This document shows positions 3,169-26,910 of a stretch of 34,636 nucleotides of DNA, one piece after another. Position 1 is the first letter of the stretch, and the number at the start of each line of letters is the position of its first letter. Under the pieces are notes generated by a model. That model saw only the letters and a list, made by a program, of their open reading frames with translations. It was not told where the DNA came from and did no database searches. The translations under genes and the position numbers were made by a program. This stretch comes from Candidatus Nealsonbacteria bacterium (lineage in GTDB: Bacteria > Patescibacteriota > Minisyncoccia > Minisyncoccales > PWPS01): positions 1 through 34,636 of the forward strand of contig PWNV01000015.1 in NCBI GenBank assembly GCA_003557645.1, given 5' to 3'.

Positions 3169-5051
3169 ACCTTTCAACTACCAAGATAGAGATTATTGCT
3201 CCGCAAGAAGAGTCAGAGAGACTTATAGAAGAACTGCAAAAAGCAGGGATTATGGAGATTACACACACTTCCCATGAAGAGGTTGAAGACGAAAAGGTGC
3301 GCAAATGGGAGGCAAGGCGAGCAAAAGTAGATTTTGTTCGTTCTTTTCTTTCCAGAAACCTCCCCAAAGAAAGTTTTGTAAAAAACTTAATTAACAGCTT
3401 CATCTTTCATCCGTACAACTTTTCTTATAAGGAAATTCAAGAAATGGCTGGCTCTTCGGAGATTGATGCAGTGATTAGAGAGTGTGCAAGCACGGAAGAA
3501 AGGATGAATAAGCTTGCAGGGGAGAGAATGAAACTAAGAGAAGAGTTGCATATTCTGGAAAAATTTAAGAATATTCCGGTTACAAAAGAAAGCAAGAACT
3601 CTTTACAAAATTTTTCTGTTTTTGTTGGCGTTATCAAGAAAGGGAAAAGAGAAGATCTCATCTCTGAACTAGGAAATGAGGTTTTTTCTTTTTCCTGCGG
3701 TGAAAAGGAAAAAGTTTTCTCTTTGATTTATCCCAAAGGAAAAGAAGAGTTTTTTCAAGAAAAAATACAAAAATATGAAGCAAAGCAAGAAGAAGTTTTT
3801 TGGAACGATCTTCCAGAAAGAGAGATTGAAAAAACACAAGAAAAAATAGAAAAAGTAGTAAGAGAAGAAGAAAAAGAGAAGAAGAGGGTTGAAGATTTGA
3901 TCTCTTACCTTCCTAAGGTGGCAGCACTTGTTGACTTTTATGAATGGGAAATTGATAAATCTCGAAGACTAGAAAGGTTCGAAAAGACAAGAAAATTTTT
4001 TCGTGTTACAGGTTGGATTGGAGAAAATGATATCAAGTTACTTCGAAGAGTAATAAAAAGAGTTACGAATGTATTTCTTTTACAGAAAACCAACTCGGAA
4101 GAAGGAGAAAATCCTCCGGTATTATTAAAAAATAACGGAATTATGAAAAGCTTTGGGATTGTAAGCGGAGTTTATGGTGCCCCCAAAAGTGATGAGCCAG
4201 ATCCAGCACCCCTTCTTGCTCCCTTTTTTGTTTTCGCTTTTGGCGTTGCTTTGTCTGATATTGGGTATGGAATTATGCTGATCGGGATTTCGCTTCTTAT
4301 GAAAAAACTATACAAGGGAGTAGATAATTTCTTTAATCTTTTTATCGTTGGAGGTATTTTTACTCTTTTTGCGGGGTTAACGATGGGAACCTTCTTTGGA
4401 ACAGACCTTAATGCTCCGTTTCGTCTTTTTGACCCTTCCGCTAATCCCATGGAGGTACTTATTTTAGTCTCTATTTTCGGTGCAATTCAGATTTTTTGTG
4501 GCCTTCTTATTGGCGCTGCTTGGGATATAAAGCAGGGAGACAAAAGAAGAGCGTTCGGAGAAAAAGGAGGATTTATGGTGTTTCTTTTAAGTATGGCAGT
4601 GTTTCTTATTAGTGGAATGCAGATTTTTCTTTTTGTGGCACTAGGAGGACTGGTCCTTCTTAATGTAATATTTTCCAAAGAAAAGAAGCCGCTCTTACGA
4701 ATTTCCAGCGGAGCTGGAGCTCTTTATAATATTGTTGGTTATTTTAGTGATGTTCTTTCATATTCTAGGCTCCTAGCCCTTGGTCTTGCTACTGGAATTA
4801 TTGCCATGGTGGTAAATGTTGTTGCGGGAATTGCCATGGAGATGGTTCCTGTGGCCGGAATAGGGATTTTAATTGCCGGAGTAGTGCTTGTTGTGGGTCA
4901 TACATTTAATTTAATGATTAGCACTCTTGGCTCTTTTATTCATAGTGCTAGGTTACAGTTCGTGGAGTTTTTCTCCAAATTTATGGAAGGAGGAGGGAAG
5001 ACAATGAAACCCTTTTCCAAACAAGGTCGTTTTGTAGAGATTATTCATTAA
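3165..5051 (+). CDS. ntpI: A/V-type ATPase subunit I (a-subunit, membrane stator)
   Basis: 628 aa. Soluble charged N-terminal half plus a polytopic C-terminal half containing the conserved stator-arginine motif (DVLSYSRLLALGLATG). Confidence 0.85.
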   Translation: MNLSTTKIEIIAPQEESERLIEELQKAGIMEITHTSHEEVEDEKVRKWEARRAKVDFVRSFLSRNLPKESFVKNLINSFIFHPYNFSYKEIQEMAGSSEIDAVIRECASTEERMNKLAGERMKLREELHILEKFKNIPVTKESKNSLQNFSVFVGVIKKGKREDLISELGNEVFSFSCGEKEKVFSLIYPKGKEEFFQEKIQKYEAKQEEVFWNDLPEREIEKTQEKIEKVVREEEKEKKRVEDLISYLPKVAALVDFYEWEIDKSRRLERFEKTRKFFRVTGWIGENDIKLLRRVIKRVTNVFLLQKTNSEEGENPPVLLKNNGIMKSFGIVSGVYGAPKSDEPDPAPLLAPFFVFAFGVALSDIGYGIMLIGISLLMKKLYKGVDNFFNLFIVGGIFTLFAGLTMGTFFGTDLNAPFRLFDPSANPMEVLILVSIFGAIQIFCGLLIGAAWDIKQGDKRRAFGEKGGFMVFLLSMAVFLISGMQIFLFVALGGLVLLNVIFSKEKKPLLRISSGAGALYNIVGYFSDVLSYSRLLALGLATGIIAMVVNVVAGIAMEMVPVAGIGILIAGVVLVVGHTFNLMISTLGSFIHSARLQFVEFFSKFMEGGGKTMKPFSKQGRFVEIIH

Positions 5052-22948: not shown

Positions 22949-25915
22949 ATGATTTCCCAAGTCGAAAAAAGAAACGGAGAAAAGGTAGATTTTGACAAGA
23001 CAAAAATAGAAAAAGCTATCTACAAAGCACTTACTTTTACCAAAGAGGGAGATGAAGCAAAGGCAAGCGAAGTTTCTGACAAGGTTTTTGATCTTTTGCT
23101 TAGAAGATTTAGCAAAGAAGAAGTTCCTCACGTGGAACAGGTCCAAGACATTGTAGAGGAGGTGCTTATTATGGAGGATCTTAAGGAGACAGCGAAAGCT
23201 TATATTATCTATCGGGAAAAACGAAGAGAGATAAGGGAGACCATGATAGAGCTTGACGATTCTTCAGAAATAGTAAGGCAGTACATTGACGAGCTTGATT
23301 GGCAAGTGAAAGAAAATGCTAACATGACTTACTCCCTCCAGGGATTGAATCAATACTCAACTTCTCATATTTCGAAAAAATACTGGCTCAACAAGATATA
23401 TCCAGCGAAAATAAGGGAAGCCGCTAAAAATCAGGATTTTCATATTCATGATTTAAACCTGCTTGCCACCTATTGTAATGGTTGGGACTTGCACGATCTT
23501 TTAATGAGAGGATTTGGAGGTGTTCCTTCTAAGGTAGAATCAGCTCCTCCCAAACACTTAAGACCTGCTCTTGGACAGATTGTGAACTTCTTTTTCACTC
23601 TTCAAGGAGAGAGTGCAGGAGCAACTGCAATGAGTAATCTTGACACGCTGCTTGCTCCTTTTATTAGAGAGGACAATTTAGATTATAAGGGAGTTAAACA
23701 GGCACTACAGGAGTTCTTTTTTAATTGCATGGTCCCCACTCGCGTAGGTTTTCAATGCCTTTCTGAAGATACGGAAATTTTAACTAAAGAAGGATGGAAA
23801 AAATATAACGAAATTGACAAGGGGGAAATAATAAAAACCTTTAACACAAATAAAGCAATTATAGAGGAAAAAGAGGTTAAAAAAGTGTTTAGAAAAGAGT
23901 ATAACGGCAAGATGTATAATGTCTTAAACAGAATTCAAGATCAACTTATATCTCCTGGTCATAGAATGGTAAGAAAAAAGTTTAACAGTAACAGTTATTG
24001 CCTTGAGGAAGTAGAAGAAGTTTTAAAATTGAAGTCCCCGCAAGCAATTCCTATCGCTGCGCACAATAATAATAAAAAAGTAGACTTAAGTGACGAAGAG
24101 ATAAGATTGATTGCTTGGATAGTATCCGAAGGAAGCATGGAAAGCAAGGGCAACTGGAAAAGAATAATAATCTACCAATCAAAAAAGAAGAATAAAGAGA
24201 AGTACGAAGAGATTTTATCTCTTTTAGAAGTGCTTGGAATAGATTACTCTTTACAGGAGGGTGCAAAATCGTTAGGAGAAACTGTAATGCAGATTAGGTT
24301 TAATTCAGACAATACAAAAAGAATTCTTAGTTGGTTTGATGAAAAAAGTAGCGTTAAAGTTATTCCACAAAAATTACTGGAGATGGACCAGGAACAAAGC
24401 AAGCTATTTTTAGAAACTTACATCAAGGGAGATGGGCACGAAGGATCAAAAATTACAATATCAGAAAAAAAGATATTGGAAGATTTGCAAAGAATTGTGG
24501 TTAATGCTGGATATGGATTTACTACAGCAAAAAGAAAGTCTTCTGGGGTAGGTAATAAATTGCTGTATATTTTAAGAATTATCAGACATCAAGAAACTTA
24601 TATCAGAGAAATCAAAGAAGTTAACTATAAAGGAGTTATTTGGTCGGTTAACACAGAAAACGAAACTGTTATTGCGAAAAGAAAAGGAAAGGTCTTTATT
24701 ACTGGAAATACTCCATTTATAAATACTTCTCTTGATGTGACGGTTCCCCAGCATATGAAAAATCAGCCAGTGGTGATCGGAGGAAAATTAAGAAAAGAGA
24801 CATATGGAGAGTATCAGGAAGAAATGGATCTCTTCAATAGAGCTTTTTATGAAGTTTTAATGGAAGGAGATGCCAAAGGAAGGCCTTTTACGTTCCCCAT
24901 TCCTACTATCTCTGTAACAAAAGATTTTGATTGGGATAATAAAGCTCTAGATAAGATGTGGGAAGCTACTGCTAAGTACGGAATTAATTATTTCTCTAAC
25001 TTTGTTCAGTCAGACATGAACCCAGAGGATTTTCGGAGCATGTGTTGCCGTTTGCGCCTTGACAATAAAGAGCTTGTAAAGCGTGGTGGAGGGCTTTTTG
25101 GAAGCCAACCACTTACCGGTTCTATTGGAGTTGTCACAATAAATATGCCGCGAATCGGATACCTTTCAAAGACAAGAAAAGATTTCTTTTCTCGACTTGC
25201 AGACATTATGGACTTAGCCAAGGAAAGTTTGGAAATAAAGAGGAAAGTGATTGATGATTTTGCGGAGAAGGGTCTTTATCCTTACAGCACCCATTATTTA
25301 TCTTCTGTTAAAGAGATGAGGGGAACTTATTTTGGAAATCACTTTTCTACTATTGGACTTCTTGGAATGAACGAGGCTTTAATGAATTTTCTTGGCAAAG
25401 ACATTACAACAAAAGAAGGGAAAGATTTTGCTCTGGAGGTCCTCGAATTTATGAGAGAAAGACTTGTTTTTTACCAAGAAGAAACAGGCAATCTTTACAA
25501 TCTGGAAGCAACTCCCGGAGAAGGAGCTTCTTTCAGACAGGCAAAAATAGATAAAGAAAAATATCCGGACATTATCACTGCAGGAACAGAGGAGAAACCT
25601 TATTACACCAACTCTATACACCTTCCTGTTGGCTACAGTAACGATCCTTTTGAAATTCTTGACATGCAAGATGATCTGCAGTGCGCTTTCACGGGAGGAA
25701 CAGTGGTGCATTTGTTTTTAGGAGAGCAAGTTTCTAGCCCGGAAGCAGCGAAGAGATTAATCAAGAAGATATTTGAAAATTATCATCTTCCTTACGTTAC
25801 CATCACCCCCACCTTTTCAATTTGCCAAAATTGTGGTTATCTTAAAGGAGAGCAGTACTACTGCCCTCATTGTAACATTAAAGGTCCTAAAGAAGTTATT
25901 AAAAAAATAAAATAA
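22949..25915 (+). CDS. nrdD: anaerobic (class III) ribonucleoside-triphosphate reductase large chain, intein-containing and lacking the glycyl-radical loop
   Basis: N-terminal ATP-cone. CCRLRLD finger-loop motif. NLEATPGE. C-terminal Zn ribbon TPTFSICQNCGY..CPHC. A 318-aa insertion with intein hallmarks. No R-x-x-G-Y motif before the stop. Confidence 0.9.
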   Translation: MISQVEKRNGEKVDFDKTKIEKAIYKALTFTKEGDEAKASEVSDKVFDLLLRRFSKEEVPHVEQVQDIVEEVLIMEDLKETAKAYIIYREKRREIRETMIELDDSSEIVRQYIDELDWQVKENANMTYSLQGLNQYSTSHISKKYWLNKIYPAKIREAAKNQDFHIHDLNLLATYCNGWDLHDLLMRGFGGVPSKVESAPPKHLRPALGQIVNFFFTLQGESAGATAMSNLDTLLAPFIREDNLDYKGVKQALQEFFFNCMVPTRVGFQCLSEDTEILTKEGWKKYNEIDKGEIIKTFNTNKAIIEEKEVKKVFRKEYNGKMYNVLNRIQDQLISPGHRMVRKKFNSNSYCLEEVEEVLKLKSPQAIPIAAHNNNKKVDLSDEEIRLIAWIVSEGSMESKGNWKRIIIYQSKKKNKEKYEEILSLLEVLGIDYSLQEGAKSLGETVMQIRFNSDNTKRILSWFDEKSSVKVIPQKLLEMDQEQSKLFLETYIKGDGHEGSKITISEKKILEDLQRIVVNAGYGFTTAKRKSSGVGNKLLYILRIIRHQETYIREIKEVNYKGVIWSVNTENETVIAKRKGKVFITGNTPFINTSLDVTVPQHMKNQPVVIGGKLRKETYGEYQEEMDLFNRAFYEVLMEGDAKGRPFTFPIPTISVTKDFDWDNKALDKMWEATAKYGINYFSNFVQSDMNPEDFRSMCCRLRLDNKELVKRGGGLFGSQPLTGSIGVVTINMPRIGYLSKTRKDFFSRLADIMDLAKESLEIKRKVIDDFAEKGLYPYSTHYLSSVKEMRGTYFGNHFSTIGLLGMNEALMNFLGKDITTKEGKDFALEVLEFMRERLVFYQEETGNLYNLEATPGEGASFRQAKIDKEKYPDIITAGTEEKPYYTNSIHLPVGYSNDPFEILDMQDDLQCAFTGGTVVHLFLGEQVSSPEAAKRLIKKIFENYHLPYVTITPTFSICQNCGYLKGEQYYCPHCNIKGPKEVIKKIK
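23756..24709 (+). mobile_element. intein with LAGLIDADG homing-endonuclease domain inside nrdD (Cys270 to Asn587, +1 Thr588)
   Basis: Starts CLSEDTEILT (block A). SPGH looks like a block B variant. LAGLIDADG-like LIAWIVSEGS and FLETYIKGDGH. Ends VIWSVNTENETVIAKRKGKVFITGN, followed by T. Removing it restores RVGFQ-TPFINTS, matching the conserved NrdD G-x-Q-x-P-F region. Confidence 0.85.
25901..25907 (+). other. A7 homopolymer 6 nt upstream of the nrdD stop; a possible slippage or error site linking nrdD to the next ORF
   Basis: Sequence is att aaa aaa ata aaa taa. One extra A, or a -1 ribosomal slip here, reads ...VIKKNKINMKKPIF..., which is in frame with 25918-26220. Confidence 0.4.
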
Positions 25916-25917
25916 AT

Positions 25918-26220
25918 ATGAAAAAACCAATTTTCAAAACCATCGAAAAGGCACTGGATACAAGGCAGTGTTTTGATTGTGCTACTAAAATAGAAATAGA
26001 AGGAGATGATCTAAAGAATGGCTCCATTCTTCTTTATGAGGACAATAAGGAGAAGTTTTTTGTTATAAAATGTGACGATTGTTACTCTAAAAATCCAGGA
26101 ATTTCTGGTTACAAAGAGTGTGAGGTTTATTCTCGTATTGTCGGGTACCTTCGACCAGTTCAAAACTGGAACGACGGAAAAAAGAGAGAGTACGAAGAAA
26201 GAGCTACCTTTAACTACTAA
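25918..26220 (+). CDS. stand-alone glycyl-radical module of NrdD with its own CxxC..CxxC motif
   Basis: 100 aa. The C-terminal EVYSRIVGYLRPVQNWNDGKKREYEERATF is the canonical NrdD glycyl-radical tail (Gly76, nt 26143-26145). The N-terminal part carries CFDC-x30-CDDC. Confidence 0.8.
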   Translation: MKKPIFKTIEKALDTRQCFDCATKIEIEGDDLKNGSILLYEDNKEKFFVIKCDDCYSKNPGISGYKECEVYSRIVGYLRPVQNWNDGKKREYEERATFNY

Positions 26221-26910
26221 ATGACAATTGGAGGATTGCAGAAGTTTACTCTTATCGATTACCCGGAAAAGACGGCTTGTATTGTTTTTCTTTCCGGGTG
26301 TAACTTTCGTTGTCCTTGGTGCTACTCTCCCGAACTTGTTCTTCCCGAAAGAATAGAAAATCATCCCAAAATCAGAGAAGAGGAGTTTTTTGATTTTCTC
26401 GGTAAAAGAAAAGACAAGCTTGACGGGGTAGTGATTTGTGGAGGAGAGCCTACTTTACATCAGGAAGTGACCCCTTTTTCTCGGAAAATAAAGAAGATGG
26501 GGTTTTTAGTTAAGCTTGACACTAACGGATCTAACCCTGAAAGAATAAGGGAGCTAATGAAGGAAAAATTAATCGATTATGTTGCTATGGATGTGAAGCT
26601 TCCTCTCTCTCGTTATTCTGAAATTAGCAATATAAATTCGAAAAAAATTAAAGAAAGTATAGATCTTCTCAAAAGATCCTCTTTAGATTATGAGTTTCGT
26701 ACTACGGTGGTTCCGGGAGTTCATACAGGGAAAGACATAGAGCAGATTGCTGCCGAGATCAAAGGGGCAAAAAGGTATTTTTTGCAGAATTTTTTTCCTG
26801 ACAAAACACTCGATGAGAGTTTTTTAAAGAAAGAGCCTTTCTCTAAGGAAGACCTTCATAAATTAAAAGAAAAAGCAACTACTCTTGTAGAGATGTGTCA
26901 AATAAGATAA
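26221..26910 (+). CDS. nrdG: anaerobic ribonucleotide reductase activating protein (radical SAM, NrdG2-type)
   Basis: 229 aa. CNFRCPWC radical-SAM cluster motif and a GGEPTL SAM-binding motif. The ATG directly abuts the preceding TAA. Confidence 0.9.
   Translation: MTIGGLQKFTLIDYPEKTACIVFLSGCNFRCPWCYSPELVLPERIENHPKIREEEFFDFLGKRKDKLDGVVICGGEPTLHQEVTPFSRKIKKMGFLVKLDTNGSNPERIRELMKEKLIDYVAMDVKLPLSRYSEISNINSKKIKESIDLLKRSSLDYEFRTTVVPGVHTGKDIEQIAAEIKGAKRYFLQNFFPDKTLDESFLKKEPFSKEDLHKLKEKATTLVEMCQIR

Follow-up and report, generated by a model that had tools for sequence, protein, structure and literature searches.

A class III ribonucleotide reductase of Candidatus Nealsonbacteria with its glycyl-radical loop on a separate, probably obligate small subunit

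The class III ribonucleotide reductase (RNR) genes described here lie on a 34,636-nt contig of a Candidatus Nealsonbacteria bacterium (PWNV01000015.1, assembly GCA_003557645.1), the whole of which is called the window below. In the window, nrdD, the gene of the large catalytic chain, stops before the glycyl-radical loop, and the loop is found at the C-terminus of a 100-residue protein encoded by the next open reading frame (ORF), itself followed by nrdG for the radical-S-adenosylmethionine (radical-SAM) activase. We propose, with a probability of roughly 0.8, that the window encodes an obligate two-chain class III RNR in which the radical would sit on a separate subunit belonging to a spare-part-like family. 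A preliminary description of this DNA had left three readings side by side: a true gene fission yielding a replaceable radical subunit, programmed slippage on an A-run near the nrdD stop, and an assembly error. The features of the locus are the following:

22949–25915, + strand: nrdD, large subunit, 988 residues encoded, ~670 once an intein is removed
25823–25873, + strand: metal-site ribbon CQNC-x9-CPHC of the large subunit, residues 959–975
25901–25907, + strand: A7 run, composed of the Lys codons AAA AAA and the first A of ATA
25913–25917, + strand: junction, nrdD stop TAA (25913–25915) and 2-nt spacer AT, then ATG
25918–26220, + strand: putative radical-carrying small subunit, 100 residues, ending ...CEVYSRIVGYLRPVQNWNDGKKREYEERATFNY (i.e. 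...YKECEVYSRIVGYLRPVQNWNDGKKREYEERATFNY)
25918–26118, + strand: four-Cys N-domain of the small subunit, residues 1–67, with C18, C21, C52 and C55
26119–26217, + strand: NrdD-type glycyl-radical tail CEVYSRIVGYLRPVQNWNDGKKREYEERATFNY, residues 68–100, Gly76 codon at 26143–26145
26221–26910, + strand: nrdG, radical-SAM activase, 229 residues

The large ORF comprises the ATP-cone, the catalytic barrel and the zinc ribbon, lacks the glycyl-radical loop, and ends ...CQNCGYLKGEQYYCPHCNIKGPKEVIKKIK (i.e. ...FSICQNCGYLKGEQYYCPHCNIKGPKEVIKKIK) at the TAA codon. It scores far above the curated cut-offs of the NrdD equivalog models, with 974 bits for NF006126 (cut-off 548) and 488 bits for TIGR02487 (cut-off 326), and is also matched by PF13597 and PF03477. 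Of the 684 positions of NF006126, the large ORF covers none beyond 650 and the small one covers 648 to 682, which places the break at about position 650, and the RxxGY motif lies not on the chain of the barrel but in the next ORF. The Cys-rich metal site found upstream of the radical loop in NrdD is present in the large ORF, where it aligns to the CxxC...CxxC of the solved NrdDs 8P23 and 1H78. The tail of the small ORF also matches TIGR02487 at positions 539–579 and, weakly, residues 601–641 of the Thermotoga maritima NrdD 4COI in a search of PDB sequences (E = 0.9). The ATG of nrdG directly abuts the stop codon of the small ORF, and its product matches TIGR02495 (NrdG2) with 201.9 bits (cut-off 131), as well as PF04055 and PF13353. 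These results bear out what had been said of the locus from its letters, i.e. a large ORF that keeps the zinc ribbon and ends before the radical site, a 100-residue ORF starting 2 nt after the nrdD stop, a C-terminal NrdD glycyl-radical tail with Gly76, and nrdG without a gap. What had been passed over is that residues 1–67 of the small ORF form an extra domain, CxxC-x30-CxxC, which is not NrdD sequence.

We then compared the C-terminal half of NrdD with its 120 closest homologues (clusters at 90% identity). Truncated NrdDs account for 39 of the 120, including all of the top 35; they are 72–83% identical to the window protein, 665–680 residues long when complete, and all end ...CPxCKIKxPKKxIKxI at the same residue. 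The remaining 81 are full length (mostly 699–704 residues) and read ...CPKCTIKQP followed directly by CEVYSRIVGYLRPV. The break falls exactly before CEVYSR, where the full-length relatives run on with ...CEVYSRIVGYLRP, the glycyl-radical loop, and the large chain ends ~8 residues ahead of the position of the radical glycine. The order nrdD, small gene, nrdG is kept in the directly fetched relatives (L001–L013). Five patescibacterial loci among them have spacers of 2, 12, 10, 34 and −4 nt between nrdD and the small gene, corresponding to frame offsets of 2, 0, 1, 1 and 2. The same arrangement in 13 GTDB species genomes comes with gaps of 2 to 54 nt and with an offset of 0 in four, 1 in three and 2 in six of them; TAA, TGA and TAG are all used as stop codons at the nrdD end, and the longest A-run near the nrdD stop varies from 4 to 8 nt. 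The closest relative (L001/L072, 'Candidatus Nealsonbacteria' B1Sed10_223R2), 82% identical in the small protein and 91% in the C-terminal half of NrdD, reads GTT ATA AAA AAA ATA AAA TAA (A8), the window GTT ATT AAA AAA ATA AAA TAA (A7), with equal frame and stop. An A8 run with unchanged frame and stop is also found in L002, an assembly independent of L001. Between the window and L001, the small ORF shows a ratio of non-synonymous to synonymous substitution rates (dN/dS) of 0.043, and nrdD one of 0.046.

Both slippage and assembly error can be weighed on this comparison. In the first case, a programmed −1 frameshift or a transcriptional slippage on the A7 run would give a fused NrdD of ~1090 residues, with or instead of the two products. 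The premises are sound: the A7 run and the −1 (= +2) frame of the small ORF relative to nrdD are as the preliminary description had them, a −1 shift or an extra A within 25901–25907 bypasses the small-frame TAA at 25900–25902, one added A does yield ...VIKKNKINMKKPIF, and A-runs are well-established slippage sites. Across the relatives the split is conserved, but neither the frame offset nor the A-run is: offsets of 0, 1 and 2 all occur, with gaps of up to 54 nt or a 4-nt overlap, and no slippery sequence is kept with its frame relation. No single recoding mechanism fits the clade, since the in-frame cases would require stop-codon read-through; read-through as such was also considered and rejected, all three offsets occurring among the relatives. 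In addition, the length of the A-run is altered by synonymous-type substitution with the frame unchanged, the A7 run in the nrdD frame is not a canonical X_XXY_YYZ heptamer, and a fusion would put the 67-residue domain between ribbon and loop, an arrangement seen in none of the best 150 representatives of the small-protein family, which moreover occurs far from any nrdD. In the second case, a homopolymer error in sequencing or assembly would have split one real gene; homopolymers are often miscalled, and 6 nt separate the A7 run from the split. The same break is, however, shared by dozens of independent assemblies, at 50–82% identity and with differing spacers and frames; the independent L001 and L002 carry A8 with the same frame and stop, and a 'repaired' fusion would still hold the 67-residue domain, which is absent from the 81 full-length relatives. 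The stops at the same point, the varying gaps and frames, the A8 run of L001 and the dN/dS values therefore remove the assembly error, which we hold to be extremely improbable, and leave slippage, itself very improbable, without comparative support. As judged from these alignments, the A7 run is a stretch of Lys and Ile codons in an AT-rich genome and not a conserved recoding signal, and the nrdD split is a real, conserved gene fission.

A fission could also be the mark of a gene on its way out, the truncated nrdD being inactive or decaying and the small protein serving a full-length NrdD encoded at another site of the genome or some other function. Two points speak for this: most of the listed members of the small-protein family (see below) do not adjoin a truncated nrdD, and the visible part of the genome amounts to 34.6 kb. 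We nevertheless consider it improbable. The dN/dS of the large ORF indicates strong purifying selection, its score far exceeds the NrdD equivalog cut-off, and the truncated form is kept, with the same end residue, in 39 protein clusters. The small gene and nrdG follow nrdD throughout L001–L013, and nrdG comes after the small gene in 17 of the 21 nrdD-linked loci found in GTDB genomes; in the window, the intergenic distances of 2 and 0 nt suggest co-translation. Patescibacterial genomes are small and rarely hold duplicate RNRs. Within the 34.6-kb window, no second RxxGY tail was found.

The small ORF belongs to a large family of stand-alone proteins. A homology search with it returned 290 proteins, and we sorted the architecture of the best 120, all of which are stand-alone proteins of 55–123 residues from many independent assemblies. 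Type A, the kind present in the window (61 of these 120; 79–123 residues), consists of the four-Cys N-domain followed by the tail; all 61 sequences share C18, D20, C21, C52, C55, G76 and most of the tail motif without variation. Type B (56 of the 120; 55–110 residues; labelled Anaerolineae/Chloroflexota) consists of an unconserved leader followed by VPCEVYSRIVGYLRPVQNWN. An example of type B, which makes a second and simpler form of split NrdD, is provided by L010–L013 (contigs up to 802 kb; small gene at 4001–4174), where a 57-residue protein is encoded 22 nt after a truncated nrdD, with a good Shine–Dalgarno sequence. We searched a type A profile against 1.84 billion cluster representatives (50% identity) and obtained 4338 matches at E<=1e-3, of which 706 reach E<=1e-10; each of the best 150 is 42–159 residues long. 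Pfam and NCBIfam hold no model for the family and give just sub-threshold matches to NrdD models; the Pfam alignment of residues 18–98 of the small ORF to model positions 511–562 is driven by the tail. We thus read the small ORF as an autonomous NrdD-type glycyl-radical protein of a large uncurated family.

The four-Cys N-domain is absent from the 81 full-length NrdDs. An AlphaFold2 model built from the 61-sequence alignment gives this domain a predicted local-distance difference test score (pLDDT) of 81–90, with beta-hairpins at residues 35–42 and 45–52, and is less confident in the loop region (pLDDT 59–80); the latter fits a segment that would fold only inside a partner. A PDB fold search with the model returned nothing significant (best E = 1.2), and we therefore describe the predicted fold only as four-Cys and beta-hairpin rich. 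An origin of the N-domain by duplication of the NrdD ribbon is unsupported, hhalign giving an 11-column CxxC match with a probability of 0.8%.

The small gene is also found beside complete enzymes. In five loci (L039, L054, L088, L108 and L121), the nrdD in front of it is full length and has kept its ...CEVYSRIVGY... tail; nrdG comes after the small gene in four of them and none was detected in L054. The tail of the small protein and that of the neighbouring NrdD share an amino-acid identity of 1.00 (L039), 0.86 (L054), 0.82 (L088), 1.00 (L108) and 0.91 (L121), and the cognate small tail is the most similar one, non-cognate pairs being mostly at 0.61–0.79, except between L039 and L121, which are close relatives. 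As DNA, the tail pairs are 75% to 100% identical, and in L054, 14 of the 35 codons differ synonymously; the match, kept despite such changes, is therefore maintained at the protein level. Such a match would be expected of a small protein that has to dock in the very barrel which receives the loop of the enzyme itself, by analogy with GrcA and pyruvate formate-lyase (PFL). Gene conversion is likely in some of these pairs; in L108, the last 105 nt, which code for the tail, are 100% identical between nrdD and the small gene. In L128, a relative of L054 and L108, a truncated nrdD (...CPKCVADAKRVKVKKAVLQTKA and stop) precedes the small gene; on this comparison it is a second, independent tail loss. 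Two full-length patescibacterial relatives (P0184 and P0187) display ftsZ-...-nrdD(704 residues)-nrdG-comEC, i.e. the synteny of the window minus the small gene.

To survey the family across genomes, we scanned one genome per GTDB species with the degenerate DNA pattern C-x2-C-x12-CEVYSRxVGY and obtained at least 120 loci (L014–L133); neighbours were read within 8-kb blocks around the listed loci and taxa taken from the record labels. Among the 120 listed, 107 are short stand-alone ORFs. Sixty are Patescibacteria-like (Nealson-, Staskawicz-, Portnoy- and Wolfebacteria, Paceibacterota, Minisyncoccia and many 'Saccharibacteria' metagenome-assembled genomes (MAGs), a label to be treated with caution) and 50 Desulfobacterota-like (Desulfobacterales, Desulfatibacillum, Syntrophales, Smithellaceae); three are labelled 'Bdellovibrionales', one is a Methanophagales archaeon and six are unclassified. 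nrdD adjoins the small gene in 21 of the 120. The 60 patescibacterial loci include 17 that are nrdD-linked, 15 of these also with nrdG in the fetched block, and at least 31 with an oxidative-stress neighbourhood, defined by a Fur-family gene, an Fe/Mn superoxide dismutase or a rubrerythrin. A Fur-family regulator lies immediately upstream of the small gene in 25 of the 60, and downstream come an Fe/Mn superoxide dismutase in 14 and a rubrerythrin in 10; desulfoferrodoxin (seven loci) and a small rubrerythrin-like protein (three loci) are outside the count of at least 31. The best NCBIfam matches of the Fur-family neighbour are PerR models (E = 7.7e-27 versus ~1e-12 for Fur models), below the curated cut-offs. 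From gene context and tail co-variation, the usual role of the family is probably spare-part repair of oxygen-cleaved NrdD.

Glycyl-radical enzymes are cleaved by oxygen at the radical glycine, and cleaved PFL is rescued by YfiD/GrcA (PMC8683613; PMC12288474). No repair other than this one is known. The only validated spare parts are GrcA/YfiD of E. coli and Y06I/vs.6 of phage T4, both for PFL (PMC8683613; PMC1524935), and a June 2026 review gives the formate lyases as the sole class of glycyl-radical enzyme with spare-part proteins (PMC13450708). Like these, the product of the small ORF is short and free-standing, with a C-terminus that replicates the radical loop of a large enzyme; members of its family coexist with, and mirror the tail of, a full-length enzyme in the five loci described above (82–100% identical cognate tails), and the link to oxygen stress is provided by the PerR-like, superoxide dismutase and rubrerythrin neighbours. 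The differences are as clear. The tail in the window is NrdD-type (PF13597) and not PFL-type, PF01228 (Gly_radical) giving no match to the small ORF at E<=0.01, and the N-terminus of YfiD is disordered (PMC13450708) whereas that of the small ORF is predicted to be a folded four-Cys domain. PFL, the partner of GrcA, keeps its tail, whereas the NrdD of the window has none, which would make the small protein an obligate subunit and not a spare. Finally, the function of GrcA/YfiD is biochemically validated, that of the present family predicted from genes. The GrcA-like replaceable subunit suggested in the preliminary description thus stands in part: the fission is conserved under purifying selection and the family is wide, beside full-length nrdD or stress genes, but the window itself holds no spare, the small protein being its only predicted radical carrier. 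The small protein would act in the manner of GrcA/YfiD without belonging to that family, and combines a putative metal-binding N-domain, folded as predicted, with an NrdD tail. A full-text search of open-access papers and bioRxiv turned up no account of an NrdD that is split or served by a spare part, in agreement with the earlier remark that neither fission nor slippage had been described for class III RNRs.

Other RNRs offer partial parallels. The canonical NrdD/NrdG systems (E. coli; T4, 1H78/1H79; T. maritima, 4COI; Prevotella copri, 8P23) share with the window the ATP-cone, the barrel, the zinc ribbon, the RIVGY motif, the adjacent activase and the sequence family; their loop is on one chain with the rest, whereas in the window it is on a separate polypeptide with an extra metal-binding domain. 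The large subunit NrdA of phage Aeh1 is reportedly encoded in two pieces, split by the homing-endonuclease gene mobE and reassembled non-covalently. The RNR large subunit in two pieces is common to both cases, but in Aeh1 a mobile endonuclease gene is said to lie between the halves, whereas the halves in the window are 2 nt apart and the second belongs to an independent small-protein family. In the class II NrdJa/NrdJb of Pseudomonas aeruginosa, the catalytic subunit is likewise encoded by two adjacent genes, and the C-terminal piece carries a zinc-finger-type domain required for turnover (Crona et al, 2015, cited in PMC9669993). This enzyme uses adenosylcobalamin and no glycyl radical, and its detached part delivers reducing equivalents, not the radical cofactor. 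We know of no free-standing spare-part relatives of NrdJa/NrdJb.

The catalytic cycle that we propose for the two-chain enzyme follows the established NrdD mechanism. NrdG, with S-adenosylmethionine, would abstract a hydrogen from Gly76 of the small protein, the tail of which would insert into the barrel of the large chain where an ordinary NrdD has its attached loop, and hand the radical to the catalytic cysteine. Upon oxygen cleavage at the glycyl radical, just the 100-residue subunit would be lost and remade. In its truncation the large chain is like an NrdD that oxygen has cleaved, but it is synthesised in that form. As for the origin, an autonomous small gene in the style of GrcA/YfiD would accompany a full-length NrdD in most genomes, beside nrdD-nrdG or in a stress cluster; in the lineage of the window, it would have come between nrdD and nrdG, after which nrdD would have shed its tail and the spare become an obligate subunit. 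We favour this order, spare part first and tail loss second, because the small family is much wider than truncated nrdD, because loci with a full-length nrdD plus the small gene exist, and because L128 is an independent truncation. More broadly, we lean slightly towards the proposal that class III RNRs own an autonomous family of glycyl-radical spare parts, often placed in PerR-like, superoxide and peroxide defence clusters, and that several lineages, including that of the window, have discarded their own loop to become wholly reliant on the detachable subunit.

The converse order would be a plain in-place fission of nrdD, with the four-Cys domain gained later and the stand-alone copies derived from it. 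The Anaerolineae/Chloroflexota show just such a state, a tail protein of 55–90 residues without the Cys domain following a truncated nrdD, and a neighbour-joining tree leaves the ancestral state undecided. We consider this order unlikely for the window, as the four-Cys protein is far wider than truncated nrdD, occurring in several phyla and mostly away from nrdD, and as the five loci with full-length nrdD and matching tails, the truncation in L128 among relatives of that kind, and the full-length syntenic relatives without a small gene between nrdD and nrdG all speak against it.

Several points weigh against our reading of the locus and of its origin. In the neighbour-joining tree of 122 NrdD cores, with the Anaerolineae enzyme as root, the full-length forms make up a single clade, whereas the truncated ones are spread over three basal groups with very short branches and are monophyletic in 6 of 95 bootstraps; internal branches measure 0.009–0.03, so that the direction of evolution, split versus fused, is not settled by the tree. 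The complex between small protein and large chain is predicted from gene content, and since the large subunit retains its own zinc ribbon, such a complex would hold two metal sites. A GrcA-like role as spare part is indicated by gene neighbourhood, by the full-length-plus-small arrangement and by tail co-variation, all of them indirect. The identical tails of L108 may stem from a gene conversion or a duplication of recent date, or perhaps be an artefact of assembly. P0184 and P0187 belong to assemblies other than those of the stress-cluster copies, and no link within one genome was found between the two. Lastly, the ~50 Desulfobacterota-like loci have neither nrdD nor stress genes within their 8-kb blocks.

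If the two-chain and spare-part readings hold, the radical cofactor of an essential enzyme would be a separately encoded, disposable cartridge, and the family would be the first of spare parts for a glycyl-radical enzyme other than PFL. The field has explicitly asked whether other glycyl-radical enzymes have spare parts, and the locus with its family would provide a concrete, clonable candidate for class III RNR, on which many anaerobes depend for all their DNA precursors, among them ultra-small Patescibacteria often found near oxic interfaces. The obligate split would also be a natural minimal system for activase recognition and barrel docking, with a 100-residue substrate in place of a 700-residue one. 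For annotation, the small ORFs now appear as hypothetical or 'partial' NrdD, and metabolic reconstructions may wrongly count the truncated nrdD as a pseudogene.

The large ORF is interrupted by an intein:

23756–24709, + strand: intein within nrdD, residues 270–587, 318 residues, with a LAGLIDADG homing-endonuclease domain

It starts with CLSEDTEIL (Cys first), ends ...VFITGN with Thr at +1, is matched by PF14528 and TIGR01445, and appears as a single clean 318-residue insertion in a global alignment with the intein-less relative P0121. Its C-terminus is GN, the usual one being HN, and the insertion point lies between ...RVGFQ and TPF.... Intein content differs among relatives, with none in the nrdD of L009 (665 residues), one in L005 (1023 residues) and necessarily several in L007 (1601 residues). 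Given that the same nrdD already carries a classical intein, and that the conserved C68 before EVYSR could in principle be a +1 residue, one might think of a split intein across the junction that trans-splices the two products. We give this next to no credence: intein models match neither the large ORF at its end nor the small ORF, the ...GYKE ahead of C68 is not an intein C-terminus of the HN or N type, and no N- and C-intein motifs flank the break. Unsplit relatives have the same Cys (...QPCEVYSR), NrdD homology reaches the last residues of the large ORF and leaves no room for an N-intein, and the Anaerolineae leader is unconserved.

The metal site of NrdD varies with its architecture, being CxxC...CxxC in the 39 truncated homologues and CxxH...CxxC in the 81 full-length ones and in the full-length-plus-small loci. 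The ligand switch from CxxH to CxxC follows tail loss within the clade of the window, but not in L128, and in L010–L013 (Anaerolineae/Chloroflexota) the site is degenerate (CPVHGY...CPYDH).

The type A genes of the Desulfobacterota-like group have a longer conserved N-terminus (M..RLHELFDENP...CHDCG...GG.VYEP...KCD.CF) and occur in large genomes of free-living sulfate reducers, e.g. L063 on the 6.8-Mb chromosome CP070697.1; neighbours in this group encode an S1-domain protein and AsmA. The MAG JBFYWX01 carries two copies of the small gene (L056 and L117). Type A genes also occur in MAGs labelled as archaea, namely L033 (Methanophagales) and L049 and L097 (labelled Pacearchaeota), which means either cross-domain spread or mis-binning. 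In L049, a rubrerythrin gene lies directly downstream.

In the window, a comEC-like ORF starts with the GTG at 26895 and shares 16 nt (26895–26910) with the end of nrdG, and ftsZ overlaps ftsA by 4 nt. From ftsA through the ABC transporter, the genes are tightly packed on one strand, in the same order as in L001.

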